Shown here one piece after another: positions 37,923 to 64,000 of a DNA stretch of 64,000 nucleotides. The stretch comes from Blasia pusilla. Lineage: Eukaryota. A model generated the notes under the pieces. That model was not told the origin of the DNA. It saw only the letters and a program-made list of their open reading frames with translations, and made no database searches. Location: assembly GCA_050084515.1 (NCBI GenBank), contig CM114271.1, positions 34,844,001 to 34,908,000 on the forward strand, written 5' to 3'. The position numbers and the translations under genes were made by a program. Position 1 is the first letter of the stretch. Every line of letters starts with the position of its first letter.

Positions 37923-38015
37923 TTCACCCCCTCCTAACCTGCACATCCTCCGGTATGTGCCAAAACATCGTGATTTCTTGCTATAGACTTATTTATATTG
38001 TGCCTCTAGACACAT

Positions 38016-40965: not shown

Positions 40966-43900
40966 TGATGCACCTTCTACTTATCTCCAATAAAGTAAGA
41001 TCCAATCTCTCTCTCTATACCATCTCACAACACAGCTCTCAAAGGTGTGCACTCTCTCTTATGTCAAACCAAACCCACTCTCCTAATGAGAGGCTTGGGT
41101 TACACTCACAAGGCAAGGGACCATAGCTCCGCCGCCTTATGCCAAGAGGTTCAACAAAGAGAGAAGGAGCTCTCAAGCTCTCTCTCTCTCTCTCTCTCTC
41201 TTGGAAGTATACCCCCCTTCCCTCTCCCAAGACCTCTCAACGATAACCTATGCTCGTAGGTCACCTCCTTGGCTCTTGACCTGATGTAGCGGGTCAAGGG
41301 CCACTTCCCAAAGTGGAAAGTCAACTATCCCAACATGGAAACTTACCGAAATAGTAAGTTTCTCTATATGGCTCCAAATGAGTCGAAACGAAGGGGAAAC
41401 CTGCTCTCTCAAGTTTCCCGGGGCCTCAACAGGTCATCCTCAACCTCTTGGGCCTATCCTCCACTACTCGTGCAGACGCTCTGCTAGATCCCACCGATCT
41501 ATCCTAACAGTCGTGACAACTATCGTGCGCATACACATCGCTGTCATCGAACACATACACAAACACATACGATGCCATGCTAACTCATGGCATCCATACA
41601 AAGAGGCGAGAAGTACCAAAATATCTCCAATCGCCCCCTTAGCTGGTGGTTAGGTTCCTCTAACTCCCAATAGCCATCTATCCCTACCTACCATGACATA
41701 CATCTCTAAGACGCTAAGACCAAAAAGGTCGGGTGCTCATGTGGCCCCATCGTTAGTCGCCTTCCTGTCATCCATGTCACAAAAAAATTCGGAATTGAAA
41801 CCTACCTAGTATCTCCTCTATGTACATCTGGGACACATCCATCGTCCTCGAGGAACCCCAGTGAGAGATGGCGTCAGGCATGCCATATGCCAACCTCTCG
41901 AACATCCATCACCAGCATCGTGGCCGCACTACGAGCAGAACCACACAGCATACAGCGCAAGCCTGCAGGAACTACTGTTGAGCTCGGATCTATTGTACCA
42001 TCAATATTAGGAAGGTGACATGATGCACAATTATGCACATGGTCCTTCCATACCATACCATCGCGTCCCTCTGGCAATCGCCAAGTTCTCGAAAGCCATG
42101 GGCATCACTCTCCGAAACAACTCAGCCCTCTGAGAACGTGCTTGCATCCATACATCTAGGTCATCAAGGTCCAGCACCTCACCAACATCTCGACAAATGG
42201 CCGTAGGTAAATCTGGCTCTCGGCCATAAAGTAGCAAGTACGGTGAAAAAGACGCTAAGGATGCCTGCTTGCTGACTTTGTATCCCATCGCCAACCACGA
42301 CAACTGGAGGTCCCAATCTCCTAGCTGACCTCTCTGTAAGCCATACTTGCGTAAACCCCTCTTCACCGTCTGCACAACTCTCTCCGCTAATCCATCCGCC
42401 TCAGGACGATCTCGCAAAGTCGGGCGGTGGTCAATCAGCGCCTGATCACACAAGGCTTGGAACTCACCGCAAAACTCCGTACCCTGGTCTGTCAACACCT
42501 CAGCCGATGCACCATAATGACTCAGTACTCTGTTAAGGAAGGCATAAGCTACTCCCTCACTCGCTTTGTCAGAAAATCAACCAACTCAATCTACTTTGAG
42601 AAGTGCTCGACCATCACCAACACATAACGACTGTGACGCTCCGTAAAAGGCAAAGGTCCTGCAAAATCCAAACTCCATCTATACCCTAAGCCCATGATCA
42701 GTAATGGATGCAACTTTGGAGTCGGAGCATTGAACGATGCTCGGACCCGATCACACACCATGCACCTAGCAACAAACTGTTGAACGTCAGTCTGCATGCC
42801 TCGCCATCAATACTGAATCTGGAGCAAGCTGTACGTCCGCTTCACCCCAAAGTGACCCAACTCCTCGTAGGCATGGTGCACTAGTCGTACTCTCTGCTAG
42901 GGATGTAGCACTACGCGTACTCTACCATCCTCCCAAACCCTCAAAACATGTGTCCCCTCCCAATGGAACTGTCTGGCCCGCTATAGGATCCGATCCCGCT
43001 CTCTAGCACCCACGGTGCTCACAACACTGCCAGTACGAAGGTACTCCAAGACTACTCCATCATCATGAATATCTCAGCCACCTGTTGTCTCCTCATTAGC
43101 CTCGGGATCCAAGGACTCTCCACTAGACCTCGCCATCAAAGTCTCCACACTCTGGCTCTCCATAGCCAACATGCCTAAATAGGTTGACGCGTGCCATCCT
43201 GACACTGACTTCTCATCACTCTCTCCATGCCATCGAGCTCCAGTCGCATCTCATTGACTCAAGCATGGGTTACGACTCAACCCATCTGCATCTTGGTTGA
43301 ACGTCCTAGGTCTATGTACCACATGAAAATCATACTCCTGCAACAACAGAGCCTATCTCGCAAGCTTCCCTCTAAGCTTTTCGGACTCCATCAACCACTT
43401 CAGTGGTTGATGACCAGTAATGATGGTAAAGGGATTGCCGAATAAGTAACACCTGAAATGCGCGACAATCCACACTGTTGCCAAGCACTCACCCTCATAC
43501 GAGATGTACTTTGCCTTTGCAGAGTTGTTCGAGCGGCTAGCATAAGCCACCACAAACTCTCTACTCTCATCATCATACTGGGTGAGCACCGCTCCAAGCC
43601 CTAACATGCTCCAATCAGTGTGCGACTGGAAAGGACGCCCCCTGATCGGCCTCCTCAAGATGCGCGCGGACGTCAATCTATCCTTGAGCAACTGAAATGC
43701 TCGCTCTTGCTCATCCCCCTAGTGCCGCTTGTGATCCACCTTGGTCAGCAAGGTTAGCGGCTTCGCAATCAAACTGAATCCCTTGACGTACCGCCAATAG
43801 AAGTTTGCCAATCCCATGAATGGGCAAACACGACTCACATCTGTAGGGCGTGGAATGCATGAGATAGCCTCTACCTTCGTCTACTGAATACCAAGGCTCC

Positions 43901-45049
43901 TTGGGTATTTCGTATGACCCAAATACTCAATCTGGTCATAGAAGAACTTGCACTTGCCTGGATATAGCTTCAGCCCATGTAATTGCAATCATCGAAACAC
44001 CTCCTCTAGATGTCGCTCATGCTCCTTAACCGTGGCGCTAAAGACTATGATGTCATCAATATAACACCTAGCAAAATCCAGACTTGCCAAGATCCTATCC
44101 GTGACCCTTTGAAACTCAACCGAGGTGTTCTTTAACCCAAATGGTAAGAACCGCCACTTGTACAAACAATCCTTCCCGTGAGGATCGATGCCCCTAAATG
44201 TTGTCTTCTGCCTATCCTCCAATCTGATAGGCATCTGATGGGATCCAACTTGCAAATCCAATGAATTGAAGACCTTTGCATGACCAATTGCATCAAAGAT
44301 CTCCTCAAGGGAGGGCATGGCATACCTCTCGGACTTCATCTGCCGATTGATAGGTCGGTAATCCCCACACATCCGCCTATCCGTCCAATTGCCATGCACA
44401 TCCTTCTTGGTGGGCATGACATTGGTAGATGCATACTCCCCATACGACCCTCTCCACTAGTCCTGCTCCGACCAAGTCCTGGCTCCTACTCTGAATCAGA
44501 GCCCTCTCCATATCACTATACCTATAGGGTCGTCGGAAGATCAGCGTATGACTCGACAACTCAATGCGGATCCCTGGTCCTTTCAGCGTACCCAATTCCT
44601 CCATGCTAAATGCAAATCAGCTCATATAACTCCTGAGGAACTAATGTATCCGGCGCCGCTCTCCTCCTGTCAACTTAGGGCCCATATCTGGCTCCAAAGT
44701 CTCCATCGTGACTACAGTAGGACTCTCTGGCGCGGGTATTGGTGGTTGCTATGGTGCAAACCTGTCTCAAACAACAACACTTGGCCGCTCTCCTGCAACT
44801 AATTGCAAACTTTGATCTCCTCCACGTGCAGTGCTCGGAACCATGCTCGATGTTGTGGCTATCATCTCTTGGCATACGTGCAAAACATCCCAAGAAGTCC
44901 AAGGGTGTCCCTCCCAATCTCCCCTGGTGTGTAGATCTCCTCGGGTCTCACCCCCAGCAGCTGCCTCCACCGTCTCGGTAGGCATGGGGCTCACCAACGC
45001 AACCGCTGTGATCTGTCGTGATCTCATACGGCGCTGCTCAACCACTCCC

Positions 45050-46000
45050 AAATTGAGGATCCATGTCAAGCAGTTTAGGTCCATGGCTTGACCCAAGACA
45101 TGGCGTCGTGATGCCTCTGACGATAGTGATGGTACTACCGTCACTCTTGTGGGAAATCCCATCGCTCGCTCTGTCTCGTTGGCGTTGGGCTCCACCAACA
45201 GTTGAACCTGGTCATCCGAAACCAAGCTAGGGCTGGCCTTCTTTTATGCATAGGAAGCGGGAAAACTCACAAATGTGGGCAAGGCTGCCCGCGTATGCCA
45301 ACACTGTTGACCACAGTCAACAGTGTTCGATCATCGTGCCTCACTAAGTGTGATCGACAACTTGGATCCAGAATGGAATCCACTAACAAATGGGAGGGGC
45401 GCTCCACTCTCGGATACGCCCTCTGTAACACCGCATGGGCCACCAAGTTGGTCCACCATAAACGTGGGCGATGGGCTCTAGAACCTATCCTCGCCGCATC
45501 CAAAAATATTTTTTGGCCGATCTAGGCACAAACTTGATGAGCACTTGTCACTACCCGTGACCTGGAGTCTCCTAAGATCGGCACATTCTCCAGAATGTAG
45601 GTTGGAGAATGAGATTGGTGCTCCTGCAACTGCCGTAAGACCCTCAACATCTCCCAAAACAACCTGGACCGAGTGTCAGCCAACCCGCTGCCTCATCCAA
45701 CACTCGATTGGCCCTGACATGGCCAACCGGAAATGACCAAAATAATGGTCTCTACCCGCTCTAAGTCCTACGCCCCCAGCAACAAAATATCCCTCGGTAG
45801 GGAACTTTGGTACCCCTGTACCGCGGACGCAGACAATAAGTTGGGAAAACGGAGGCATAACTGCGCCACATGTCATAGTGAGACACGCCTCGCAACATCA
45901 TTACTCTCCACATATAAGTATTGTTGTACTCGCACTGTTGCCTGCAAAACAAGAGCTAACTCGGTGCTAATTCTTCCAAAGAGATCTAACACTCGAATAC
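45050..46000 (-). pseudogene. DNMT3-like C5-cytosine DNA methyltransferase domain inside the pol of family B copy 1
   Basis: Motif I IRVLDLFGRIST, motif II YVE, motif IV LVISGWPCQGQS (catalytic PC at 45717-45722), motif VI YILENV (45582-45590), motif VIII AHRPRLWWTNL, motifs IX/X ETERAMGFP..SRRHVLGQAMDL. Interrupted by stops and frameshifts. Confidence 0.9.
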
Positions 46001-46787
46001 CCTCCTCCGAGGTACACCACACAATGGGTGTGGTATCCAAGGGTGTCATCATAGCACTCCTTGCTACCTTGGGTTCCTGAGACCCGTCACGCTCCGATGC
46101 AAATGCCTCGCTCCACGCGGTCAACACGTGCTCATCTGCCAATTGTCGAAGCTCCTTAGTCGAGCCCCACAGCGGCACCTCTCCTCCACGGAATGATGTA
46201 GCTACCATAACACTCCTCTCCATAGAAATGTCAGGAATGGCAGTATCCTCTGCATGGACATGTCCCTCAATCAAATCACTAGGCCAAGTGATGGCACTAC
46301 TAAATGCTGCTAAGGTCGTCATCTTTCCTGGCTCTTGCTCGATCACTGCACCTGTGAATCGAACGGATAATGAGCTAAGGCGCCCATCACCTGACTCCCA
46401 TCCTGGTCTGTAGGATGTTGACTCCTCCCAGTAATCCACAGAAAATCCCATCGGGTATAACACTGCTCCACCAACCAAGACGTCGAAGGACTCTTCATCA
46501 GTCAATATCGCCTTGGCTCGCACCACGGACTCATCTATAGGATATCCCGGGTGAATCCTCACCATGACCTCATGTCGGGAGATATACTGTGTGGTACTCG
46601 CTCCACCCAAGGATGTATGTATCCGGAATGGACAACGCTCCACATCGACTCTCGTCAAGCCCAACTCTCTAAATGACGCTTTCCCCAACATCAGGGGTTG
46701 CGCTCTTCAATCCAACAAGACGCGCTGCGGACTAAAAGCTCTACCTCCAGGACTCACCAAGTGGAAGACCTCTCCTCGGTTATCCAA

Positions 46788-47433
46788 CAACACAACTCCA
46801 AGAGAAGCCATGGCATGCTCTATCGCGGGTCTAGCGGGCATCTCCGCCATCCTTGCAGTCGCAGCCTGCCATGAATCTCACGTGGACGCCCCGAGCATCC
46901 GCTCCAAGGGCAGGTCCATCACCTCCTCTACAATCAACTCTAAATGTGATGCAGGAACTCCAACTCTACGCTCACATAGTGAAGCGACCACCAAAAAAAG
47001 CCTCGACGGCGCTACCCCCAACGTCATAACATCAGAAGCAGAAAATAAAGGAGTGCGGTACACAACGATGGCCGCCCCAAAGAACGTGCTTGACACATGC
47101 CCCTCATGAGCAACACAACTCCAAGAGAAGCCATGGCATGCTCTATCGCGGGTCTAGCGGGCATCTCCGCCATCCTTGCAGCCGCAGCCTGCCATGAATC
47201 TCACGTGGACGCCCCGAGCATCCGCTCCAAGGGCAGGTCCATCACCTCCTCTGCAATCAACTCTAAATGTGATGCAGGAACTCCAACTCTACGCTCACAT
47301 AGTGAAGCAGCCAGCCAAAAAGCCTCGACGGGCGTACCCCCCAACGTCATAACATCAGAAGCAGAAAATAAAGGAGTGCGGTACACAACGATGGCCGCCC
47401 CAAAGAACGTGCTTGACACATGCCCCTCATGAG
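46788..47433. repeat. 323-bp tandem duplication in the gag-protease region of family B copy 1
   Basis: caacacaactccaagagaagccatgg...gacacatgcccctcatgag occurs at 46788-47110 and 47111-47433. The ORF track shows near-identical ORFs. Copy 2 has only one unit. Confidence 0.92.
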
Positions 47434-50400
47434 CATAAACAAAGGAGTCGTCGCACTCGCTTCTCCCATCGCCCTCCGTGCCTGCACACCAACAACATCA
47501 CTAACTCTCCAGGAACTTTGATGAGGACCCATCGATGGGGTCGTCATTGCTTCGGACAACGTGAAAGACTAAGGAAGCCTAGTCTCTTTTCTGGCTTCCC
47601 CTCGCTATGGATCCAACTCTGCGGCTACTCCACCCATCACAATTGCGGCGGCCTCCATCTGGGAAACCGTGCACATCCAACAAGGATCCTCCATATCTCT
47701 GGCTGCTCCATATGATGTCGATGCCACGGATCCGACATCAGGTAACCTCAATGCCATAGCGGCAATCTGCTCATGTAGCTGTTGTATCTGAGCAGCCATC
47801 CTAGCCTCACGTCCGACGTCTCCCTCGGCGCGTCTAGGTGGTGGTACTCTATCTCCTCCACGGGCAGCTCCACCACCCTATCGAGCAACTCTAGCTCCTT
47901 GTCCCCCAACGGGACCACCTGGTGCACGATCTCTAGGCTCATCCCGACCGGCTACTCACTTTGGTGCCCTCTCTGGCCCTCGGTCCGGACGTAACTCAGG
48001 ATGTAAATTGAAACACATGGCGTGTGTATCACCATACCTCTAACAATAGTCACACAGATAACCTCCTGGTGCAGCACCATCTCCTCCTCCATGGTTGAGG
48101 CACACGTCCATAACCCCAAGGAGTGCAATCGCGCTGATGATGGGCTCCACCACATGACCAAAAAGTAATAGTAGGCGGCTGCTATTGAGCCGCATATGAA
48201 GGCGCACGTCTCTGTGGAACCGCCTCCTGGTATCCTCCTTGAGCTCATGGTGCCATTGTCGACCAATCTTGGAGTCCACGTTGCTACACAAGTGGTGCAG
48301 CCAATCGTGACTACTCTCGCCCAGAACCCATGGTGGCTATGCTCTCCTCCGCCATGTTGCACTCAATATTCTTCCTAAAAACATCTCTCAACGTAGGGGA
48401 GGTGTTCATAAGAAGCACCCCCTCCCGCACCCGTGTCCACAGGGTCAAGTCCAGCATTGCGTACCATGATTGGATAGCCTAAGCCTCTATCACCCCCTAA
48501 GAGACGTTGATCAACCGGCGCAAGCGAGTGTAAGCTTCACGCAAAATCTCACCTGGGCGCCTCTGGAAGTCGTGGCTACTCTCCAACTTCTTCGTCCGTA
48601 CCCCTTGGTAGCTCGCCCTCAACTCGGCAAAGAACTCAACCACAGGGTTGAACTTGGGACGAACCAAACAAGACGGTACAACTGCTCTAGTGCAAGTGAC
48701 CCCTCCTAAAATATCACTAGTGGAAGAGGAAGTAGCCTCTCCTAACTCCTCCTCCTCATCTGGGAACGGATCCGTCCATGACACATAATATGGGTCATAG
48801 TAGAGCCTCCACGTCTCGATCTCACCTGCATATCTCTAAGAGAACTCATGGTAATCGTCCATGGGCACCCCCTCTAAATGCTAGAACATACCGTTCCATG
48901 CTGTTAACGGGTTAAACTCTCTAGAGTTCCTAGCCCGCTGGGAGTCGCACGAACTCCTAAGCCCTGCTATGAAATCATGCAACTCAATCGTGCCTACGGC
49001 ACCTAAAAATCTACGCGGTCCTCTACCCCGATCATCCATCTCGTACGCCCAACTGGTAGGACCACTCACAATGTGTGGCGATGTGCTCACAAACTCCTCT
49101 ACACCCTCCCCCTTGTCTGACGATGAAACAGTAGGAGGTCGAGGTGGAGATCCTCAGAACCTCGCGCCACTCCGCGTAAAACCTCCAGAGCTACTCTCGG
49201 GTTCACCACCTTGCCTCTCAAAGTCCCGAACGGACGCCGTGATGACCCCGTGCCCCTCTCACCCGATCACTCTCAACCTCGCAAGTAATCCCTCAATCAC
49301 TCATCCCAAACATGCGGCACTCGATCTACACTCTCCTTCCCCGAGACGTGTAACGTGTAGCAACACGCGGCGTGGTGCGGCAAATCGACCAAGGCTATCA
49401 TCTCATCGCCAACCTACCCTAAACTCCGGACATCCCACACAGGTCTATGTCCCCTAAACCACATACATGAATGATGCTCTCAGCATCCACACAACCCAAT
49501 ATCCCCAAATAAACTACCCAAATCCCATAATCCCTCACACGTGCAGAGTAAAGGACCAGAATGGGTAACTTGAACATATTTTGGTGTCGCTCCTCAAAAA
49601 ATAAAAATCTCGACCCCAACTCGGTCGTGAAGATAACTTTTCTAATCAGCAAGTCGTACTCCTCTCGTACTGACGCTGCTCAACCTCCTTGATGTGCAGT
49701 GCGGGTCGAGCGGTCGGGTGTGGCATTGGCGGCATGGAACGGCTAAAAACAGCGCGGCACTCAGGAATAGGGGGCGGCACTCGGCGGCATACCCTCCTCA
49801 ATCAGCAATTCACACGCTCTGCTCCTTAGTGAAGGAGCGATTGCGCGATCGAGACAGTGAGGTGCGGCCACGAGCGGCACGGCGCAGCAATCGGCGACAC
49901 ATTGTGGCTACGGGCGTCACGGCACGGTTCTCGATCATTGTCAAGCGGCTAGCAATCACAACAAAGCAACATGAAATCAAAACTCAAACACCATAACCGG
50001 AGGTCATGTGCCATCACTAGTTGATGACGACACTGCGATGACGATGGCGGCCAAAACAAAGTACATGGTGGCGAAGCAAGTAAGAGAATCAACGAACGTC
50101 GTGGAAGACCCTCCACTCGGTAATGGCGGCAATGGAAACGGACGGTGGACCATTGACGGTGATGGTTGACCATCTATGGTAGACCGTTGACGATGACTAT
50201 GACGGAGACGGCTGGTTTAGGGTTTGAACAATTTAACTCCAAAAATCACCTAGCAATGGCAATTTTGCAAGATTGATCATAACTTTTTGCTTGCAACTCC
50301 AAATTGCACACTATTTATTGCACAACGTGCACAGCATCATGATCTACAATAGCATTAAAAAATATTTAGAATCAAACATTTTTGTAAAAACTGACGGGGA

Positions 50401-51939
50401 CTGTCGTAAAGCCCAATGTCTCTTTCTCCTACACAAAATTTGGCAGCGCTTCCGCGCTGATTTTCCCCAACAAAAATATAAAACCTTTAAAAATACAAAT
50501 CATCAAGCTATATGGTGCTCCCAAGAGCGCCGACATGGGGCAGTCCGCCCCCATAATCAATCCCTATCAGAAATTGGGCAACACTTCCGTGCCACACTCT
50601 TCCACACAAAAAATCGGCAAATGCAAAGAACAATCAAAGCAACCCTTGCTCCGGTGAGCACTCCCATGAGCCGCTGAATGGGGAACACGATCCCCAACCT
50701 GCAAAAAAAGCGAGTGACCAGTGAGTTTCCCCTTGAAGCTCTCTCACTCTCTCATTTCTCTCTTTGTAAAGTAAAATCCAATCTCTCTCTACACCATCTC
50801 ACACCCTAGCTCTCAAAGGTGTGCACTCTCTCTCATGTCAAACCAAACCCACTTTCCTAATAAGAGGCTTGGGTTACACTCACAAGGAGAGGGACCATAG
50901 CTCTACCGCCTTATGCCAAGAGGTTCAACAAAGAGAGAATGAGCTCTCAAGCTCTCTCTCTCTCTTGGAAGTATACCCCGTTCCCTCTCCCAAGCCCTCT
51001 GAACAGTAACCTATGCTCGTAGGTCACCTCCTTGGCTCTTGACCTACTCTAGCGGGTCAAGGGTCACTTCCCAAAGTAGAAAGTCAACTATCCCCAACAT
51101 GGAAACTTACTAAAATAATAAGTTTCTTTATATGACTCCAAATGAGCCAAACGAAGGGGAAACCTTCTCTCTCAAGTTTCTCGGGGCCTCAACAGGTCCT
51201 CCTCGACCTCCAAGGCTTGTTTTCCACTTCTCGTGCAGCCGCTTTGCTAGATCCCACTGATCTATCCTAATAGTCGTGACAAGGTTCAACAAAGAGAGAA
51301 TGAGCTCTCAAGCTCTCTCTGCTTGAGGTATATCCTTCTCTTCTCCCAAGCTCTCTCCATGGTAACCTTTGCTCCCAAGTCACCTCCGTGGCTCTTGACC
51401 TCATCTAGAAGGTCAAGGTCAACTTACCAAAAATATAAAGTTGATCATATACTCAAATGGTACTAACCTAAAATAGCAAATTCCTCAATATGACTCCAAA
51501 TGAGCCGAAATGAAGGGGAAACCTGCTCTCTCACATTTTCCGGGGCCTCAATAGATCATCCTTGACCTACTGAGCCTTTCCTCCACTACTCACAAAAGTG
51601 CTCTACTAGATCTCATCAATCTATCCTAAAAGATGTGACAGTTGTCGTGCGCATACACATCGCTACACAACATACATCATTGTCACCGAACACACACAAA
51701 CATGCACGATCCCATGCTAATTCATGCCATCCAAACAACGAAACAAGAAGTACCAAAATATCTCCAATTACCCTCCTAGTTGGTGGTTAGGTCCCTCTAA
51801 CTCCAGATAGCTATCTATCCCTATCTACCATGACATACATCTCTCAGACGCTAAGAGCAAGAAGATCGGGTGCTCATGTTGCCCCATCGTTAGTCGCCTT
51901 CTTGTCATCCATGTCACAGACACAAGTCGTAATGTAGAA

Positions 51940-52095
51940 CTACCTACTCTCTGTACATCTGGGACACATCCATCGTCCTTGAGGAACCCTAGTGAGAGGT
52001 GGCGTCAAACATGCCATATGCCATCCTCTCGAACACCCATCACATACTAGCATAGTGGTTGCACCACAGGCGGAACCACACAACATACACCGCAA
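51940..52095 (-). pseudogene. PHD finger at the C-terminus of the family B integrase (copy 2)
   Basis: CMLCGSACGATTMLVCDGCSRGWHMACLTPPLTRVPQGRWMCPRC has the C4HC3 PHD pattern. A frameshifted homolog lies at ~41820-41960 and a remnant at ~63430-63515. Confidence 0.92.
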
Positions 52096-55000
52096 GCATG
52101 CAAGAACTATTGCTAAGCTCAGATCAACTATATCGTCAATTTTTGGAAGATGACATGGCACACAATTATGCACATGGTCCTTCCAAACCATAACATCGTG
52201 TCCCTCCAAGAAGAGAACACCGGATGGCGAAACCTCACGCACTCTCAAGATGGTGCGCCTTGTAGTCATATCCAACGTCGTGGATGCCGTCTGCTGCAAG
52301 TAGATATAGTCTCCTTGATGAAACCTCCGGATAGTAGGTCGATAACCACCTCCTCAAATAGTCGCATACCTCAACGTATCCCGATGTTGCGCAATCGCCA
52401 AGTTTTCAAACGCCTTGGGCATCACTCTCCAAAACAACTCAACCCTCTGAGATTATGCTCACATCCATACATCAGGGTCATCAAGGTTCAACACCTTACC
52501 AACATCTTGACGAATGGCCGCTGGTAAATCTGGTTGTTGGCCATAAAGCAACAAGTACGGTGAGAAAGATGCTAAGGATGCCTGCCTGCTAAATCTTTAT
52601 CCCATCGCCAACCACGGCAACTGAAGGTCCCAATCTCCTAGGTGACCTCTCTGCAAGCCATACTTGCATAGTCCTCTCTTCATCGTCTGCACGACCCGCT
52701 CCACTAGTCCATCCACCTCAGGATGATCTCACGAAGTAGTGCGGTGGTCGATCATTGCCTGATCATACAAGGTCTGAAACTCCCCATGGAACTCTGTACC
52801 CTGGTGTGTCAACAGCTCAGCTAGTGCACCGTAATGACTTAGCACTTGATCTAGGAAGGCATACGCTACTCCCTCACTCGCTTTGTCAGGCAATGCAACC
52901 AACTCTATCCACTTCGAGAAGTGCTAGACCATCACCAACACATAACAACTATGGCGCTCCGTCAAAGGCAAAGGTCCTGCAAAATCCAAACTCCATCTAT
53001 AATCTAAACCCATGATCGCAAGTGGATGGAGCTGTGGAGTTGGAGCATTAAACAATGCTCAGACTCGATCACATACCATGCATTTGGAAACAAAGTGCTG
53101 AACGTCAGTCTACATGCCTCCCCACTCCAATACTGAATCTGGAGCAAGGTGTACGTCTGCTTCACTCCAAAATGATCCAACTCCTTGTGGGCATGACGCA
53201 CCAAACATGCTCTCTACGAAGGATGAGGCACTACATGCACTCTACCATCCTCCCACACTCGCAACATATGTGTTCCCTTCCACCAGAACCGTCTGGCTTG
53301 CTGTAGGATCCCATCCTGCTCTCTAGCACCCACTCTACTCGCGACGCTGCAAATACGCCGGTACTCCAAGACCACTCCATCATTTTGAATGTCTCGGCCA
53401 CCTGTCATCTCCTCACCCGCCTCTGGATCTAAGGACTCTCCATCAGACCTCGCCATCGAAGTCTCAAAAATTTGGCTCTCCATAGCTAACAAGCCCAAAT
53501 AGGCTTACGCATGCCATCTTGGCACCAACTCCTCATCACTCTCACCATGCTAATGAGCTCCAGTCGCATCTCGTTGACTCGAGCATGGGTTATGGCTCAA
53601 ACCATCTACATTGTGGTTGAGCATCCTAGGTCTATGCACCACCTGGAAGTCATACTCCTGCAACAAAAGAGCCCACCTCGCAAGCTTCCCTGTAAGCTTT
53701 TCGGACTCCATCAATCACTTAAGTGGCTAATGATCACTAATGATGGTAAAGGGATTGCCGAATAGATAACATCTAAAATGTACGACACCCCACAGTATAG
53801 CCAAGCACTCACCCTCATACGAGCTATACTTCACCTTTGCAGCGTTGTTGGAGCGACTAGCGTAAGCCACCACAAACTCTCTACCATCATCGTCATGCTA
53901 GGTGAGCACCGCTCCAAGCCCCAACATGCTCTAATCGTTACGCAATTGGAAAGGACGCCCCCCGATCGGTCTCCTCAATATGGGCACGGACGTCAATCTG
54001 TCCTTGAGCATCTAAAATGCTCTCTCTTGCTAATCCCCCCAATGCCACTCCTGATCCACTTTGGTCATCAAGGTTAGTGGCTTCGCAATCGAACTGAAAC
54101 TCTTGACGTACCGTCGATAAAAGTTTGCCAATCCCATGAATGCACGAACTCGACTCACATGTGTAGGGCGTGGAATGTTTGAAATAGCCTCTACCTTTGT
54201 CTATTGCACACTAAGGCCCCCTGGATATATCGTATGACCCAAGTACTCAATCTGGTCGTAGAAGAACTTGCACTTGCCTAGATGTAGCTTCAACCCATAT
54301 AACTGCAATCGTCGAAACACCTCCTCTAGATGTCGCTCATGCTCCTCAACCGTGGCGCTAAAGACTACAATGTCATCAATATAACATCTAGCAAAATCCA
54401 AACCTGGCAAGATCCTATCCATGACCCTCTGAAACTCAACCAGGGCATTCTTTAACCCGAATGGTAAGAACCGCCACGGGTACAAACAATCCTTGCCGTA
54501 AGGATCGAAGCCCCAAAATGCCGTCTTCTGCCTGTCCTCCAATTTGATAGGCATCTAATGGTATCCGACTCACAAATCCAATGAATTGAAGACCTTCGCA
54601 TGCCCAATCACATCAAAGATCTCTTGAGGGGTGGGCATGGCATACCTATCGGACTTTGTCTGCCAATTGATAGGTCGATAATCTCCATACATCCGCATAT
54701 CTGTCTAGTTGCCATGCACATCCTTCTTGGCGGGCATGACAATGGCACATGCATACTCTCCATGCGACATCTCCACTAGTCCTGCTCCAACCAAGTCATG
54801 GCTTCTACTTTGAATCAGAGCCCTATCCATGTCATTGTACCTGTAGGGTCCTCAGAAGATTGGCGTGTCACTTGACAATTCAATGCGGATCCCTGGACCC
54901 TTCAGGGTACCCAAATCATGCATACTAAATGCAAAAAAGCTCCTATAACTCCTAAGGAATTGGTGTATCCGACGCGCTCTCCTGCTGTCAACTTAGGGCC

Positions 55001-55339
55001 CATATCTGCCTCCCAAGTCTCCATCGTGACTACGGTAGGACTCTCCAGCGCAGATGTCGGTGGTTGCTATGGTGCAACCTCGTCTCGGACAATAGAACTC
55101 TCATCTCCATGTGCAGTACTCGGAACCACGCTCAATGTTGTGGCTATCATCTCTTGGCGTTCCTGCAAAACATCCCAAGAAGTCCAAGGATGTCTCTCCC
55201 GATCACCCCTAGTGTGTCGATCTCCTTGGTTCTCGCCCCGGCCCCAGCCACTGCCTCAACCATCTCGGTAGGCATGGGGCTCACCAACGCAGCACCTGTG
55301 ATCTATCGTATTCTCAAATGACGTTGCTAAACTATTCCT

Positions 55340-56290
55340 AAGTTGAAAATCCATGTCAAGTAGTTCAGGTCCATCGCCTGACCCAAGCAATGATGTCGTG
55401 ATGCCTCTGATAGTGACTGTACTTCCATCACTCCTGTGGGAAATCCCATCGCCCACTCTGGCTGATCGGCGTTGGGCTCCACCAATCTCTGTACCTCGTC
55501 GTCCCAAACCAAGCCAGATCCGGCCTCCTTAAATGCATAGGAAGAGGAAAAACTCACAAATGTGGGAAAGGCTGCTCGTGGCATGCCAATCTTGTTGACC
55601 ACAATCAATGGCGGTGGATCATTGTGCCTCATTGCCTGTGATCGACAGCCCAGATCCAATATAGAATCCACCAACAAATCGGTGGGACGCTCCACTCTCG
55701 CATAAGCCCTCCGCAACACCTCATGTGGTACCAATTTGGTCCACCGAAGACGTGGGCGGTGTGCTCTAGAACCTACACTCGCCGCATCTAACAACATTTC
55801 CGGGCCGATCCACGCACTCACCTGATGTGCACTCGTCACCACGCGGGACCTCGAATCGCCCAAAATCGGCACATTCTCCAAAATGTATGCTCGAGAACGA
55901 AGCTGATGCTCCTCTAAATGTTGCAAGATCCGCATCATCTCCCAAAACAACGTGGACAGAGTGTCACTTAACCCGCTACTTCGTCCAACACTCGATTGGC
56001 CCAGACACGACCATTCAGCAATGACCAAGTCTATGGTCCCCACCCGCTCCAAGTCCTACGCCCCCAATAATAAAATGTCCCTCGGTAGGGAACTCTGGTA
56101 ACCCTGAATGGCGGACGCAGACAACAAGTCGGAAAAATGGAGGCGTAACAGCGCCATATGGTGAAGTGAAGCGCGCCTCACAACATCATCAATCTCCACA
56201 TACATGTACTGTTGCACGCGCACTCCAACGTGCAAAACAATAGCTAATCCAGTGCTAATCCCTCCAAAGAGATCCTACACCCGAATACCC
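55340..56290 (-). pseudogene. DNMT3-like C5-cytosine DNA methyltransferase domain inside the pol of family B copy 2
   Basis: GIRV*DLFGGISTGL..YMYVEID, IDLVIAEWSCLGQS, LFWEMMRIL, YILENV, LDAASVGSRAHRPRL and EWAMGFPTG..SRHHCLGQAMDL. Confidence 0.88.
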
Positions 56291-58634
56291 TTCTGTGGGA
56301 TGCACCACACAATCGGGTTGGTGTCCAAAGGGGTCATAGCAGCACTCTTGGCTACCTAGGGTTCTTCTGACCCGTCACACTCTAGTGCAAACGTCTGGCT
56401 CCACGCGATCTGCATATGCTCAGTGGCTAAGCGTCGAAGCTCCTCAGTCAAGCCCCACAACGGCACCTCTCTTCCACGAAAGGATGCGGCTACCATAACA
56501 CTCCTCTCCATAGAAATGTCAAGAACGAGAGTATCCTCTACATGGACATGTTCCTCAATCAAATCACCAGGCCAAGTGATGGCACTGCTAAATGCTGCTA
56601 AGGTCGCCATCTCTCCTGGCCGTCGCTCGATCATTGCACATGTGAATCGAACGGGTAATGAGCTAAGGCACCCATCACCTGACTCCCATCCTAGTCTATA
56701 GGATGTTGACTCCTCCGAGTAATCCACGGAAAACCCCATCAGATATAACACTGCTCCACCAACGAAGACGTCATATGACCCTTCATCACTCAGTATTGCC
56801 TTGGCTCGCACCACAGACTCATCTGTAGGACGTCCCAGGCGAATCCTCACCACGACCTCCTGTTGGGTGATATACTGTGTGGTACTCAATCCACCCAAGG
56901 ATGTTTGTATCCGGAATGGACAACGATCCACATCGGCTCTCGTCAAGCCCAACCCTCTGAATGACGTTTTCCCCAACATCAGGGGTTGCGCTCTTGAATC
57001 CAACAAGACGCGCTACGGACTAAAAGCTCTACCTCTTGGACTCACCAATTGGAAGACGTCTTCCCAGTTATCCAGCAAAACAACACCAAGAGAAGCCATG
57101 GCACGCACTATCGCGGGTCTAGCGGGCATCTCCGCCATCCTAGCAGCCGCAGCCTACCATGAATCTGACATGGACAACCCGAGCATCCGCTCCAAGGGCA
57201 CGTCCATCACCTCCTCTGCAATCACCTATGAATGTGATGCAAGATTTCCAACTCCACGCTCACATAGCGTAGCGGCCAACCAAAAAACCTCGGCGGGCGT
57301 ACTTCCCAACGTCATAACATCAGAAGCAAAAAATAAAGGAGCGCAGTACACAACGGTGGCCGCCCCCAACAACATGCTCGACACATGCCCCTCCTTAGCA
57401 TCAACAATAGGAGTCGTCACACTCGCTTCTCCCATCGCCCTCCGTGCGTGCACACCAACAACATCACCAACTCTCCAAGAACTCTGAGGAGGACCCATTG
57501 ATGGGGTCCTCATCGCCTCGGACAACGTGAAAGATTGAGGAAGCCTAGTCTGTTTCCTGGCTTCCCCTTGATGTGGATCCAACTCTGAGGCTGCTCCACG
57601 TGTCATAATTGCGGCGGTCTCTATCTGGGCAACCCCGCATATCCAACCAGGATCCTCCATATCTCTGGCTGCTCCATATGATGTCGATGCCACAGATCTG
57701 GCATTAGATAACCTCAATGCCATGGCGGAAATCTGCTCTTGTAGCAGCTGTATCTGAGCAACCATCCTAGCCTCACGCATGGCATCTCCCTCGACGCGTT
57801 TAGGTGGTGGGACTTTACCTCCTCCATGGGCAGCTCCACCACCATGTCGAGCAACTTGAGCTCCTCGTCCCCCAACAAGACCACCAAGTGCACAATCTCT
57901 AGATCCACCTGGATTGGCTACTCGCTCTGGTGCCCTCTTTGGCCCTCGGTCTGGACGTAACTCAGGGTGTAAATTGAAAAATCTGGCGTGTGTGTGACCA
58001 TACCTCTGACAATAGTCACACTGATAACCTCTTGGGGTAGAACCATCTCCTCCTCCATGCTGAGGCACACGTCCATGACCCTGATGAGTGCAATCACGTT
58101 GATGATGGGCTCCACCACATGACCAAAAAGTAATCGTAGGTGGCTACTATTGAGCTGCATATGAGGGCGTAGGTCTCTGTGGCACGGCCTCTCAATATCT
58201 TCCTTGAGCTCGTGGTGCCACAGTTGACCTATCTCAAGGTCCACGCTGCTGCACTAGTGGTGCAGACAATCGTGACTGCTCTCGCCCATAACCCATGGTG
58301 GCTATGTTCTCCTCCGCTATGTTGCGCTAATGTTCTCGGCGGTCCTAAAAACATCTCTCAACGTAGGGGAGGTGTTCATAAGAAGCACCCCTCCCGCACC
58401 CGTGTCCGCAGGGTCCGGTCCAAGCATCGCATATCATGACTTGATAGCCTGAGCCTCTGTCACCCCTTGAGTGACGTTGATCAACCGGCGCAAGTGAGTG
58501 TAAGCCTCACAAAAACTGTCACCCAGGCGCCTCTGGAAGTCATGGATGCTCCGCAACTTCTCCGTCCGTACCCCTTGGTAGCTTGATCTCAACTCAACGA
58601 AGAACTCAACCATGGGGTTGAACCATGGGGTTGA

Positions 58635-58685
58635 ACTCGCACTAGAGCAGTTGCAACTAGACGATGCAACTGCTCTAGTGCGAGT
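58635..58685. repeat. Perfect 21-bp inverted repeat with a 9-nt spacer, preceded by a 13-bp direct duplication
   Basis: actcgcactagagcagttgca / tgcaactgctctagtgcgagt, with aaccatggggttg x2 at 58608-58633. Confidence 0.9.
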
Positions 58686-59375
58686 GATTCCTCCTAAAAC
58701 ATCACTAGTGGAAGAGGAAGTAGCCTCTCATGACTCCTCCTCCTCCTCATTTGGGAACGGCTCCGTCCATGACACATAGTGTGGGTCATAGTAGAGTCGC
58801 CATGCCTCAATCTCTTGGGCATATCTGTGGGAGAACTCATGGTAATTGTCCATGGCCGCCCCCTCTAAATGCGCATACATACCGCTCCATGTTGTAAATC
58901 AGTTGAACTCTCTAGAGTTCCTAGCCCGCTATGAGTCACACCAACTCATAAACTCTGCAATGAAGTCAAGTAGCTGTATAGTGCCTACAGCACCTGAAAA
59001 CCTATGCGGTCCTCTACCTCGGTCGTCCATCTCGTACGCCCAATTGGTAGGACCACTCAATGTGTACGGTGGATCACTAACACACTCCTCTACACGCTCC
59101 TCCTCGTCTGAAGACGACACAAAAGTAGATCGAGGTGATCTCTCATGTGGAGGCCCTCGAAACCTCGCACTACTCCGGGTAAATCCTCCAGAGCTACTCT
59201 CAAGTCCACTACCTCGCCACTCAAAATCTTGAAAGGACGACATGATGGCCCTCGTGCCCCTCTCACACGATCACTCTCAATCTCGCGGGTAATCCCTCAA
59301 TCACTCAAACTAAACATGCGACACTCAATCTACACTCTCTCACTAAGACGTGTGTTGTGCAACAACAAGCAACGT

Positions 59376-60647
59376 TGTCGTGTCGAGAGCCTTTCTTCGA
59401 GTAAGGGCATGCCTTCTAGCTGCGGCACACGCGGTTGATGCAAGATGAACTCTATGAGAAGATCTCCTTTTTCAATATAAAATTATTATGTACACTCTCC
59501 ATTCTCTCACGACAGGTATCACAAATGGAAGTGCCGAGGCGATCACTACTTCGTAACATCGGACCCCGGAATTCCTAACTATAAAATCCCTATAAACTAT
59601 TTTATGCTTGTATACGAGGAAGATAGCACAACTAGTGTTAAACCCCACTTGAGCAGGCCTATTGACATCCATGGATCGCTATATAAGGACATACAAAGTA
59701 CAATCCCATGTCCTTCCATATGTGACGATAGGAAAGATCACCGGAGTTGGAGATTGAATGACCTGGTTCATGAACGCCTCCCCAAAGTGATAAACTAAAT
59801 AGTGAGTGAACCAGTGCATATCTACAAATAGTATCTTGATATGGTATGGATTAAGGAAAGGAAAGTCGGGCACAACTCGTGCTCCACCCCTATCCATGCT
59901 TGACAAACATTCTCTACTCTCCTCAAGAATGGGTTTTGGCGGAGTTATTCTCCCAAGAGGGATAATCCACTCTCATTGGGGAAGTAACAAGCCAAAACAT
60001 TCACTATATTAGTATGACTAAGCTCCTCTAAGGTGACAAACCTCTCATCTCCATACACACACCACACTCTAGCTTGAAGAATAGACCATGGTCAAGTTAC
60101 TCTCCCAGGAGGGGTGATCCACTCTCATTGGAAGAGCAAGAAATCCCAAAGTCATATACTCAAGAGTGACACGAAAGACTCAAGATGTGGAATAGGAGGT
60201 GATGAACCCTTGAAGATCCCTCCTCTTTATATACTCCCAAGAAACCCACAAGAGTACGAAATAGAGCTAATCTTATCTTGTGCCACATGGCTTCCTCTCA
60301 AGGCTTAGCCAATCACATTTTGACACAAGTAGATTTCCTCTAATCTCTTCCAAAATATCCTCTTTTACCAACTTGATATTTTCCAAATTACCCCAACTAA
60401 CCTAGCCACCAACCAAGCCTACTTTTGCTTTTCATTAAAGTACCAACCTCACTACTTTACTTTTATAAAGTCATCTTTTATTTATTACCTCCTTTTCTAA
60501 AGTTGGGCCCGCATAAAAGAGGCACCATAAAGAGGTTTAAACATAAGAATTTCCTTTTCCTTAGCTAATTTAGTTAATACTAGTAAAACTCTATCTAACA
60601 CTTAACGAGGAAGGAGTTTACACACTGGTTGATTTTACTATACGACA
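59376..60647 (-). mobile_element. Solo LTR of Gypsy family A inserted in the 5' leader of family B copy 2
   Basis: Termini TGTCGT...ACGACA, near-identical to 36648-37922. The flanks ACGT/AAGT look like a degenerate 4-bp TSD. Removing the insert restores colinearity with the empty site in copy 1 at ~49360-49385. Confidence 0.88.
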
Positions 60648-62524
60648 AAGTGGTGAGGCAAATCAACCGATCTATCGTCTCATCGACAAATGATCCTCAA
60701 CTCTGGACATCCCACACAGATTTATGTCCCCTAAACCCATACATTATCGATGCTCCTAGCATCAGCACGAAACACAATATCCCAAATAACTTCCCAATAC
60801 CTGCAAATCCCTCACACGTGGAGGGTAAGAGACCAGAATGGATAACCTGACAATAATGTCGATGTCGCTCCTCGGCAACTGCAAATCTCGACCCCAACTC
60901 GGTCGTGGAGACAACTCCTCCAACTACTCCTCTTGTACTAACACTGCTCAAACCTCCTCGATGTGCGGTGCACGTCCAGCGTTCCGGTTCGGCGCTAGTT
61001 GCACGGAACGGCTACAAACGGCATGGCACTCGGCGGCATACCCTCCTTAATCAGTAATTCACACGCTATGCTCCTTAGTGAAGGAGCGGCTCCGCAATCG
61101 AGACGGTGCAGTGCGGCCACGAGCGGCATGAGCGGCACGGTGCGGAAATCGGCGGCGCGTTGTGGCTACGGGCGTCACGGCACGATACTCGATGGTCGTC
61201 AAGCGGCTACCAATCATAGCATAGCAACATGAAATGAAAACTCAATCACCATAACCTGAGGTCACCTGTCATCAATGGTTGATGACAAAACTACCATGAC
61301 GATGGCGTCCAAACCAAAATATATGGTTGCAGCGCAAGTTAGAGAATCAACGATGGTCGTGGAAGACCCTCCACTCCGTATTGGTGGCAATGGCAACCAA
61401 AGGGTGGACAACAGCCGAACGCGGCTCTAAGCTACGCTAGGCGGCGGCAGCGGCCGACGGTGGACGGTTGACGGTGGACTATTGATGGTGACAATTGATC
61501 GTTGATGGTGAAGGCGGACCATTGACGATGATGGTTGGCCATTGATTATGACTATGACGGCAATGGTCGCCGCCGGCGCGGCGGCTGGTTTAGGGTTTGA
61601 ACAATTTAACCCTAAAAATTACCTAGCAATGGCAATTTTGCAAGATTGAACATAAATTTTTGTTCACAACTCCAAATTGCACACCGTTTGTTGCACAGCG
61701 TGCAAAGTTTCATGATCTACAACAACGTCAAAAAATTCAAATTTGGAATTGGATATTCTAGTAAAAACTGACGGGGGCTGTCGTAAAGCCCAATGTCTCT
61801 TTCTCCTACAAAAAACTCGGCAGGGCTTCTGCACTGATTTTTCCCAACGAAAATCTAAAACCTATGAGAACAAAAATCAGCAAGCTAATAGCCTCCAAAT
61901 ACCTATAACACAAACCAACATGGATGGAAATAAAGGATGCAGCTTACGCAACGTTGACACGATGGGATAGATCTCATATTGATACTATCGAATGACTATT
62001 ATAACTTTAAGGCATGTGCGGGGACACTTGGATATCTATAGTGGGCTCCAAAAAGGACTAGAGATGGAGCCACTAGGACGAGGGATGTAAAACCACTTCT
62101 ACATATAGTGGCTGTAAAGAGTAGTACTTATTATGGTATGACAAGTTACTTGAGGTAGAAGTATCCTTTCTTATTATAGAGCTTCTTTAGTGGATGTTAG
62201 TTTGAGACATGCGTAAAAATTGTATGATTGCATGGAGAGGAAATGAACATAATGGAAGATAAATTCCTATAAATATTAATCTTAAAGAATTTTTTGAATG
62301 TGGTAGGTGAAGTATTCAATGCCAAGTATAAGGAGGCCTTATGTTAGATAGGAAAATTGGCCATAAAAGTTGTTGGTGTGCAATTTTGATTTTTTTTGGC
62401 CTTTTATGGGGAATTAAGTTTCTTTTATGTTGTGTTGTAGCATCCAAAACTTGGAGAATCCTTGATGCATTTGTGTAGTTCTATCTATACGGGTGACTTG
62501 AGTTTTAGAGTGTGCAGATAAAGA

Positions 62525-62885
62525 TGTCTCGACTTTTCTAGTAGATCGAAAAGGATCCATAGGTTACTTTGGAGGAGGTCGGAGGTCAGCCTTTGGAGGT
62601 AGAGGATGGACTATTGAGAACAAGGGTAATCTTAGAGAGCAAGTTTTCCCTTTTTTTGGCCTATTCAGATCCATATTGAAATATCTATTTTTTGGTTAAA
62701 TTCCACTTAGGAGCATAGTCAAATTTCTATTTCTGAAAGTGGCCCTTGACCCGGCCCCTATTGTTGATCAAATACCAAGGAGGTAACTTGCGAGCACATG
62801 TTACAAAGGAGAGAGGGAAGGGCAGAGGGTAGTGGTATATCCAAGGAGAGTGAGTTCTAGAGCTCATTCATTCTTTGTTCAACCT
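62525..62885 (+). repeat. Diverged family B LTR fragment in inverted orientation
   Basis: Its reverse complement aligns by eye with 51282-51640 (aggtt.aacaaaga..gaatgagctct, ggtcaaggg.cactt, ggaaa.cttgctctct, ..aaag...gaca). Confidence 0.75.
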
Positions 62886-63520
62886 CTCCCAAGGCTCCCT
62901 CCTTGACTCTCGGTCAATAGTAGAAGGTCAAGGGTCACTTTCAAAAATATGAATTCAAATATGCTTATAATAGGAATTTACTTAAAATAGTGAGCTCCTT
63001 GGTATGACTGTGAATGACCCTGAACAAGGGGAAACTTGCTCTCTCAGGTTATCCTCGACCACTTGAGGCTATCCTCCAACCTCCTCGAAGACAAATCAGG
63101 GATTCTTGTCACTTTGCTATAAAAGATATGACAACTATCATGTGCATACAAATCGGTATCATCAAACATAAACAGATAGACACAAAATACCATACTGACT
63201 CGTGACATCTAAATACAAAGACAATTGTATGTGTACCAAAATATCTCTTAACGTCCCTCTCGTGAGTGGTTATATATCTCTACCTCCAGATTGTCATCTA
63301 TCCCTACCTACCATGATGACACTAAGAGCAAAAAGGTTGGGTGCTCACGCGGCCCCATCATTGATTGTTTTCTTTTCATACATGTTACTAATATTAGTCT
63401 AGATCTATGACTACCTTGTATCTACTTTGTGTACATCTCGTGCACATCTATCGATCATCCCTGAGGAACCCTAGCTAGAGGTGGTATCAAACATGCTATG
63501 TGCTACCCCCTCTTGGACAT
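62886..63520 (-). mobile_element. Third, older family B remnant (partial LTR, 3' UTR and PHD fragment)
   Basis: Similar to 51370-52030: ggtcaagggtcactt, ggggaaacttgctctctca, tgacaactatc, taccaaaatatctc, ctatccctacctaccatga, gggtgctca..gccccatc and tgtacatct..gaggaaccc..gaggtgg. Confidence 0.75.
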
Positions 63521-64000
63521 TCATTATAGATCAATTTTAGCAAACAGCTTGGACAAGCAAAAAATGGAAAACGCCCTTGCCCAATTTGGGAGGTGGGTCG
63601 AGTCTTTTCTCGTACACTATCAGCGGACTATTTTCAATAAATTCAATGGTTGGTTTAGAAAGCTGAGAAGAAATACACTACTAGGTTTCTAGTTAAATGT
63701 CATTTTAGGGAGTTTTAGCTCTAGTGGCCAACTGTGAATGACAAAACCAAGGGTTCACAAGGCGGGAAAATCAAACAATAGGCAAGAATTGGCGCCTTTA
63801 ATTGCCACAACCATTCCAATAACTTATAGAGAAATTACTCTTGAGGTTGGAAAAATACCACCAAATAGCAATAGTCGTTGAAAGATAGGGGACAATAATA
63901 GATAATGTGGCTACTATTGAGAAGATCTACAAAAGTCATTAGGTCAATCCAACTACAATTTTGCTTGGAACAAAATGCTTCATCTACCCTAAAGCTGATC

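Follow-up and report, generated by a model that had tools for sequence, protein, structure and literature searches.

Cytosine methylation is the main means by which hosts silence transposons, and a transposon that carries a de novo methyltransferase of its own is counter-intuitive. The closest described case is KnitGypsy-Dnmt3 from Klebsormidium nitens, a Gypsy element which, according to the text of the original report, contains a DNMT3 DNA methyltransferase (DNMT) under purifying selection and gave an inconclusive result in a yeast activity assay (de Mendoza et al., 2018, PMC5890265). The same text describes SymbioDIRS-Dnmt3, the product of which methylates CG de novo in yeast (PMC5890265), and a passage of a more recent preprint refers to ‘streptophytes (Gypsy-DNMT3)’ as known (10.64898/2026.05.21.726589). 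We have analysed a stretch of 64,000 nucleotides from Blasia pusilla (assembly GCA_050084515.1, contig CM114271.1, positions 34,844,001 to 34,908,000; hereafter the window), in which a nest of minus-strand retroelements spanning approximately 40.9–63.5 kb includes two copies of an element with a DNMT-like domain. With regard to both anatomy and history, we are confident that both copies are now dead, that they belong to one Ty3/Gypsy family with a DNMT3 in its standard gene set, and that they inserted independently of each other.

From their predicted products, both copies are Ty3/Gypsy elements with the order gag-protease-DNMT-reverse transcriptase (RT)-RNase H-integrase-PHD finger. This assignment draws on Pfam matches in the window's open reading frames (ORFs) to PF00145, RVT_1, RT_RNaseH_2, rve and PHD, on the succession of RT, RNase H and DDE integrase downstream of gag and an aspartic protease, and on flanking long terminal repeats (LTRs), which are present as a pair in copy 1. 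Copy 1 is a whole element with both LTRs, reading from 51281 to 40991 on the minus strand. Its parts are as follows.

50767–51281, minus strand: 5' LTR, beginning TGTCAC and terminating in TTACTTTA
49051–50766, minus strand: leader of about 1.7 kb, from the 5' LTR to gag
47094–49024, minus strand: decayed gag (tblastn with Marchantia protein P0006)
46011–47093, minus strand: protease-like region and linker (tblastn with P0006 and P0007)
45040–46010, minus strand: DNMT3-like domain with DLFGR, GWPCQG and ENV, five stops and a 1-nucleotide deletion at about 45294
44749–44769, minus strand: probable natural end of ORF1 (gag-protease-DNMT), reading PSVVV and TGA, then AP and TAG, with RT continuing in the same frame
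42031–44694, minus strand: RT, RNase H and integrase (Pfam RVT_1 1.3e-15, RT_RNaseH_2 2.8e-28, rve 1.4e-4; tblastn)
40991–41519, minus strand: 3' LTR (multiple alignment of 3' ends)

Copy 2, reading from 61887 to 51282 on the same strand, has lost its 5' LTR and has had its 3' LTR cut where copy 1 begins.

60650–61887, minus strand: 5'-truncated leader lacking a 5' LTR, with homology to copy 1 stopping at about 61887
59379–60649: solo LTR of a different Gypsy family within the leader, 91.5% identical to 36645–37920
56299–59378, minus strand: end of the leader, gag and protease-like region, including the ORF at 56356–57012 (tblastn)
55330–56298, minus strand: DNMT3-like domain in one frame, with TAG at 56277 and 56058, and with DLFGG, EWSCLG and ENV
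52090–54974, minus strand: RT, RNase H and integrase (Pfam RVT_1 1.5e-21; tblastn), with 13 stops in the RT-RNase H match
51955–52089, minus strand: PHD finger at the C terminus of the integrase ORF (Pfam PF00628, 6.5e-11)
51282–51640, minus strand: 3' LTR, stopping after about 375 nucleotides, right against the start of the 5' LTR of copy 1

The protease, DNMT and RT regions are contiguous in both copies without intron-like gaps, in agreement with the intronless protease-DNMT-RT junctions that the first-pass annotation of this DNA, made from the letters alone, had ascribed to both. Relatives of P0006 and P0007 match Asp_protease_2 or gag-asp_proteas at the corresponding region, and zf-CCHC matches also occur in relatives; Pfam gave no match on the window's own ORF over the protease-like region of copy 1. 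In that copy, the linker between gag and protease contains a 323-nucleotide tandem duplication (46786–47085 and 47109–47408, 94% identical) which is a single unit in copy 2, and the first 256 nucleotides of the leader (50511–50766) have no counterpart in copy 2. Conversely, the solo LTR at 59379–60649 is private to copy 2, where the alignments with copy 1 on its two sides have 5 bp (49372–49376) in common. The placing of the ORF1 end in copy 1 is based on Calypogeia protein P0002, which terminates in SLEVVV, and on the ORF2-type proteins P0183–P0187, which begin just ahead of RT; an arrangement in which ORF1 and RT share one frame split by TGA and TAG would fit either stop read-through or re-initiation. 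Neither a primer-binding site nor a polypurine tract was recognised in the elements, a search of the window for tRNA genes found none, and a motif of the initiator-tRNA type, with two mismatches at most, had four matches against 5.6 expected, none of them at an LTR edge.

The methyltransferase domain is, judged by sequence and structural matches, of the DNMT3-like C5 cytosine type. The copy 2 ORF at 55327–56055 matches PF00145 with E=3.3e-5 and 23.9 bits (cut-off 22), and all 29 of the solved-structure matches are to DNMT3A, 3B or 3C, the best at 1e-8. Neither PWWP nor ADD was found by Pfam beside the catalytic domain in window ORFs or relatives. In copy 2, the minus strand from 56298 to 55330 can be read in a single frame that gives V, a stop and DLFGGISTG, followed in turn by VIAEWSCLGQSSVGRSSGL, ILENVP and GSRAHRPRLRWTK, with two TAG codons and no frameshift. 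In copy 1, 46010 to 45040 gives VLDLFGRISTE and then VISGWPCQGQSSVG, a stop and GSGL, the stop being a TGA at 45695, six codons past GWPCQG; four stops precede the 1-nucleotide deletion and one TAA lies beyond it. These read-through translations bear out the contrasts drawn in the first-pass annotation, namely that copy 1 has GWPCQG followed by a TGA where copy 2 has EWSCLG in an open stretch, and that DLFGR in copy 1 is DLFGG in copy 2. Its further suggestion that the two copies together rebuild an intact enzyme holds only in part: the motif details stand, but both DNMTs have a TAG at the same codon (45770 in copy 1, 56058 in copy 2; LLLGA, stop, DLERV, between motifs I and IV), where intact relatives have Pro, and the combined frame is therefore not fully open.

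An element might retain such a domain for a purpose other than DNA methylation, as a DNMT3L-like regulator, a decoy or an enzyme acting on RNA. Its position in ORF1 beside Gag, where nucleic-acid-binding proteins are usual, would suit a role of this kind, as would the want of demonstrated activity for any Gypsy-DNMT3 and the inconclusive yeast assay of the Klebsormidium element in the text of PMC5890265. We nevertheless think this explanation unlikely, because motifs I, IV, VI, VIII and X are in the normal, unrearranged order, and the catalytic Cys in PCQ, ENV, RxR, the glycines of motif I and motif X are nearly invariant among relatives in an alignment of ten sequences, seven of them from outside the window. 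A regulator that has lost catalysis, such as DNMT3L, is not expected to keep catalytic motifs.

Selection on the DNMT was estimated from a codon alignment of the two copies, the comparison with RT that had been proposed in the first-pass annotation. The ratio of non-synonymous to synonymous change (dN/dS, NG86) was 0.30 for the DNMT (bootstrap 0.22–0.40) and 0.28 for RT-RNase H (bootstrap 0.21–0.38), neither of them near 1. The N-terminal part of gag gave 0.36 (0.23–0.54), the gag C terminus 0.73 (0.52–1.01) and the protease-linker region 0.59 (0.40–0.95); off-frame controls on the same DNA ranged from 0.5 to 1.6, and the gag C terminus and protease-linker could not be distinguished from them. 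Differences between the copies fell at first, second and third codon positions in the numbers 57/40/95 for the DNMT (p=4e-6) and 75/59/116 for RT-RNase H (p=3e-5). Part of the divergence thus appears to have arisen at a time when constraint on the DNMT was similar to that on RT.

When decay is biased, as here, from GC to AT, low dN/dS and an excess of third-position changes might instead reflect methylation-driven mutation at GC-rich third positions during neutral decay. The bias is certainly strong: decay runs predominantly C>T and G>A, the stops are mostly CAG>TAG, CGA>TGA and TGG>TAG or TGA, and transitions in the DNMT outnumber transversions by 120 to 72. The differences were consequently examined by base class, and within sites of the G/C class third positions of the DNMT had still changed more than first and second (0.399 versus 0.266 and 0.222, p=5e-4). 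Sites with A/T only had the same pattern (0.094 at third positions versus 0.033 and 0.036), transversions were distributed 19/19/34 by codon position, the neighbouring protease-linker was flat under the same mutation regime (0.219/0.221/0.221 for G/C-class sites), and off-frame readings of the same DNA gave 0.77–1.59. Neutral decay alone is thus very unlikely to have produced the pattern in the DNMT. Under our preferred reading, of independently inserted family members, the two lineages would have diverged as functioning elements before insertion, and purifying selection would have acted on the DNMT as strongly as on RT; given selection on the DNMT like that on RT, the domain would therefore have been carried, used and moved with the element. 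Decay would have followed in both copies, with C>T and G>A as its main changes, until each had about 30 stops.

The case for two insertions, as opposed to one duplicated element, is made by LTRs, flanks and lesions. Over 3,208 aligned bases of the protease-DNMT-RT region the identity of the two copies is 84%, and in two long blastn matches it is 83.6–83.8%. The LTR of the family is about 530 nucleotides long (TGTCAC to TTACTTTA), and the 5' and 3' LTRs of copy 1 are identical at 330 of 364 (90.7%) and 139 of 151 (92.1%) positions, whereas the LTR of copy 2 matches the adjacent 5' LTR of copy 1 at 270 of 360 positions (75.0%) and the 3' LTR at 279 of 360 (77.5%). LTR divergence between the copies (22.5–25%) is thus far greater than within copy 1 (about 9%), and the source elements must therefore have diverged before copy 1 inserted. 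No flank homology was detected between the copies, matching stopping at the element ends. With Marchantia proteins as frame guides, 31 in-frame stops were counted in copy 1 and 29 in copy 2, of which three lie at the same codon; in a test by codon columns, with 114 columns stop-prone in both copies and 20 stops per copy, three common stops were found where random coincidence would yield 3.5. No frameshifting indel is common to both copies, and the stops are mainly of the CAG>TAG, CGA>TGA and TGG>TAG or TGA types. The many substitutions and mostly different lesions noted at first sight are hence real, and nothing suggests that the copies' shared ancestor was already broken. As side observations, CGA>TGA is commoner in copy 1 (six versus one) and CAG>TAG slightly commoner in copy 2 (seven versus five).

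Duplication, in tandem or segmentally, of a single element that had died beforehand, the case that the first-pass annotation had named as one that would undo its claim and that would be uninformative on transposition of the DNMT, is hardly credible: the copies do lie head to tail, are colinear over about 9.5 kb and share three stops at the same codon, one of them in the DNMT, but the LTRs of copy 1 pair with each other (about 91%) and not with that of copy 2 (75–77.5%), the flanks are unshared, the shared stops are no more than the 3.5 expected at stop-prone codons, and dN/dS is 0.3 and not near 1.

Other ways of dividing the DNA between the copies were tried and rejected. One took the copies for LTR-less units parted by a spacer of 256 nucleotides. 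The multiple alignment identified 50767–51281 as a full LTR, and position 50755 has genomic read cover of approximately 974-fold, so that the supposed spacer is family sequence. An apparent ‘360-nucleotide tandem duplication’ in copy 2 was likewise discarded, its second unit and the next 155 nucleotides or so (50767–51281) being the 5' LTR of copy 1. Local alignments of 5' against 3' ends scored 58–65 against shuffle maxima of 43–54; they were weak and inconsistent, and lay at non-matching places.

Searches beyond the window place the two copies in a wider group. The best protein matches are from Calypogeia fissa (60%), Marchantia polymorpha (55–56%), Marchantia paleacea and Sphagnum species; a protein library search returned 1,157 matches at E≤1e-3 and 124 (representative clusters) at E≤1e-30, the named members including Closterium and Scenedesmus. 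Intact relatives, as represented by proteins P0002, P0006, P0013 and P0183–P0187, comprise two ORFs, ORF1 encoding Gag-protease-DNMT (e.g. P0006, 1,278 amino acids) and ORF2 encoding RT-RNase H-integrase-PHD in about 1,040 amino acids from a Met start. Of 27 long matches that were scanned, three (P0029, P0033 and P0050) have the DNMT in front of RT or immediately behind the protease, 23 have RT/RNase H ahead of the DNMT-matching stretch and then integrase where the sequence extends that far, and one (P0018) has the DNMT alone; a PHD finger lies at the end of the integrase in 17 of the 27. A Tudor-like domain also occurs in P0030, and a G-patch in P0077. In some public gene models from Marchantia (P0007, P0008 and P0186) DNMT and RT are joined in one product, the stop region of ORF1 having been left out as though intronic.

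A scan of metagenome data with a narrower DNMT alignment as query confirmed 109 relatives, of which 80 loci were kept. Where at least 1.5 kb of upstream sequence was available the protease region was present in 43 of 44 loci, and where at least 1.5 kb was available downstream RT lay within 1.5 kb in 36 of 43. Among stored proteins with at least 450 amino acids upstream of RT and an RT at least 44% identical to that of the window, all 16 have the DNMT, compared with nine of 24 where RT is 40–44% identical. Pairwise p-distances for DNMT and RT were correlated across 72 distinct polyproteins (77 before identical ones were removed; r=0.78) and more closely within the 18 members with the DNMT first (r=0.94), values which none of 999 permutations reached in either case; the polyproteins were gathered by likeness to the window's DNMT or RT and are kin, not independent, so that these figures are to be read as congruence and not as a formal test. 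In each of the two FastTree trees the 18 DNMT-first members fall into a single clade (support 0.985 and 0.999).

Sequencing runs from the same species were aligned to the window at a likeness of at least 80%, and depth was taken in bins of 667 nucleotides. About 1/100 of genomic run X12 was sampled, giving 216,478 aligned reads. Depth over the two DNMT bins was 1,310 and 1,551 in copy 1 and 1,195 and 1,179 in copy 2, compared with 1,030 and 857, respectively, over the protease bin and 1,716 and 1,659 over the RT bin. Depth does not dip over the DNMT, and at this likeness nothing points to a large subfamily without the domain. The recurrent protease-DNMT-RT order, the congruent DNMT and RT trees and the read depth without a dip over the DNMT together argue for what the first-pass annotation had proposed, a DNMT that is a stable, family-level domain and moved with the element. 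Genomic reads at least 99% alike numbered 396; if these are the locus's own, its coverage is about 3-fold and the family would amount to a few hundred copies. Where the window departs from the family majority, it has A/T for G/C 1,027 times and G/C for A/T 605 times, an excess that fits decay of both copies by deamination.

Three RNA runs contributed 9,054, 9,742 and 10,008 aligned reads, with an orientation bias of roughly 10–50 to 1; over the DNMT bins, cover was 39–65 with the first mate on the plus strand and 0.9–5 on the minus strand. For the usual deoxyuridine triphosphate (dUTP)-type library, this means minus-strand RNA, sense to the elements. The RNA reads are mostly less than 95% alike and are therefore derived from other members of the family.

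The following considerations weigh against our interpretation. The dN/dS values come from a single pair of decayed copies and mix selected with neutral phases, and at sites of the G/C class the third-position excess in RT-RNase H (0.218/0.220/0.292) reaches only p=0.04. Catalytic or S-adenosylmethionine-binding motifs are mutated in both copies (motif I in copy 1, motif IV in copy 2), and no intact copy occurs in the window or among the 80 metagenome loci, all of which are decayed, with 545 amino acids as the longest stop-free stretch. For the two-ORF layout the source is gene models in databases. The DNMT itself served to find the loci and some of the proteins, which biases the counts towards carriers, and diverged relatives without the DNMT would be invisible in 667-nucleotide bins of reads at least 80% alike. 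The strand of the RNA depends on the library being of the usual dUTP type. Finally, no Gypsy-DNMT3 is known to have been demonstrated to act as a methyltransferase, and the yeast assay of KnitGypsy-Dnmt3 was inconclusive (PMC5890265).

Some features of the elements extend beyond their genes. The segments just upstream of the 3' LTRs (41520–41646 in copy 1 and 51641–51768 in copy 2) are of interest in connection with an A-internal-B-A-B layout of terminal repeats, with A of about 330 nucleotides and B of about 115, which is complete in four of 15 long metagenome loci (L036, L056, L058 and L072); three more have the A pair. The LTR end is connected to a segment lying about 120 nucleotides upstream of the 3' LTR in several hundred genomic reads, and the 10 nucleotides that follow the 3' LTR of copy 1 (40981–40990) repeat the start of a segment about 122 nucleotides upstream of that LTR. 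A layout of the A-B-A-B type is typical of DIRS-like elements, yet the present elements have a DDE integrase.

Two further pieces of the family were recognised in the window.

62525–63524: debris of more diverged members, in which the 3' end of a third copy (end of PHD, 3' untranslated region and part of an LTR) meets an inverted piece of LTR at 62885/62886
21998–22481, minus strand: solo LTR of the same family, 75–78% identical to the LTRs of copy 1 and copy 2 over the full LTR

The former is 62–63% identical to the family LTRs in alignment columns and 66–67% in blastn matches. Beside copy 1 lies a different Gypsy element on the minus strand (36645–40980), with an LTR at 36645–37920, an unbroken RT-RNase H-integrase ORF of 756 amino acids (38710–40980) and no gag-protease; this ORF begins 10 nucleotides past the 3' LTR of copy 1. 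RNA and DNA reads over 40523–40974 nearly all have letters other than those of the window (209 of 213 genomic reads at 40523) and are therefore derived from other copies. GC skew is strongly negative (-0.13 to -0.25) across 38000–62000.

Our working hypothesis for the function of the domain is tentative: we regard it as possible as a whole, while leaning somewhat against it. In live members the DNMT would be made as the C-terminal part of an ORF1 polyprotein and would then methylate cytosines de novo, with the element's own complementary DNA or a new insertion as the most probable target, an idea of self-methylation that is taken from the text of de Mendoza et al. (2018; PMC5890265). The PHD finger of the integrase would probably read a histone tail and so choose insertion sites. 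A wider evolutionary picture, which we consider rather doubtful, is that of a bryophyte-type genome with a sense-transcribed DNMT3-Gypsy lineage at more than 1,000-fold depth, belonging to a green-lineage-wide clade with PHD-bearing integrases in which a single ancient capture of DNMT3 was followed by its co-divergence with RT and by one relocation from RT-RNase H-DNMT-integrase to Gag-protease-DNMT followed by RT. For such a Gypsy clade (Scenedesmus, Closterium, Marchantia, Calypogeia and Sphagnum) no published description was found.

If intact members are active, a transposon DNMT3 made in Gag-like amounts could supply de novo methylation in bryophyte cells. The family could also account for some Marchantia genes that are annotated as cytosine methyltransferases. 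Several proteins of Marchantia and Calypogeia that carry the name DNA (cytosine-5)-methyltransferase or hypothetical protein are products of transposon ORF1, not to be counted as host methylation genes. To judge from the published text, the underlying case of a Gypsy-DNMT3 is a single alga, and the present family extends the phenomenon to bryophytes, in which the function of DNMT3 is actively studied. The points added are co-inheritance of the DNMT with RT across a broad green-lineage clade, its occurrence at two positions in the element, and its company with a PHD finger on the integrase.

The comparison with KnitGypsy-Dnmt3, as it is described in the text of PMC5890265, is the closest. Both are Ty3/Gypsy elements with an intronless, unrearranged DNMT3-type domain in the coding region and conserved catalytic residues. 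For KnitGypsy-Dnmt3, purifying selection between copies is described at a Ka/Ks below 0.2; the DNMT here, at 0.30 (0.22–0.40), lies clearly under the off-frame controls and above that value, and comes from decayed copies with neutral changes mixed in. The A-coding-B-A-B layout given for KnitGypsy-Dnmt3 in a figure legend (PMC5890265) is met here in metagenome relatives, in read joints and as the 10-nucleotide remnant at copy 1. The elements differ in that the DNMT lies here at the end of ORF1, ahead of RT, whereas that of KnitGypsy-Dnmt3 is placed in ‘the Pol polyprotein ORF’, its order being unstated in that text; in that the integrase here carries a PHD finger, a feature that the text of PMC5890265 does not mention for KnitGypsy-Dnmt3; and in that the nearest relatives here are bryophytes and not a charophyte alga, the likeness to the K. 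nitens elements being one of published description and not of sequence. Marchantia is absent from the text of three supplementary files of PMC5890265, and our literature search, so far as the sources it returned could show, found no description of DNMT3-bearing Gypsy elements in liverworts or mosses.

Other systems are more distant. SymbioDIRS-Dnmt3 of Symbiodinium likewise has an old DNMT3-type domain, under purifying selection, in a retrotransposon polyprotein, but by the account in PMC5890265 it belongs to the DIRS class, which uses a tyrosine recombinase and lacks a DDE integrase, and represents an independent capture in dinoflagellates. EpiLTRs from Cymbomonas and Euglena are likewise LTR elements with a cytosine methyltransferase and a chromatin-targeting domain; as the preprint presents them, their DNMT is sister to DNMT4 and they have in addition an adenine methyltransferase and a chromodomain (10.64898/2026.05.21.726589). 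Chromoviruses also place a chromatin reader at the C terminus of the integrase, but theirs is a chromodomain and the one here a PHD finger (PF00628). Cellular DNMT3s (DNMT3A, 3B and 3C, and plant DNMT3) are of the same catalytic type, whereas the domain here is fused to Gag-protease and occurs at more than 1,000-fold read depth. A Gypsy element with a DNMT3 is therefore already known in kind, and what is added here is the placement of the domain in ORF1, the PHD-bearing integrase and a clade that is wide within the green lineage.

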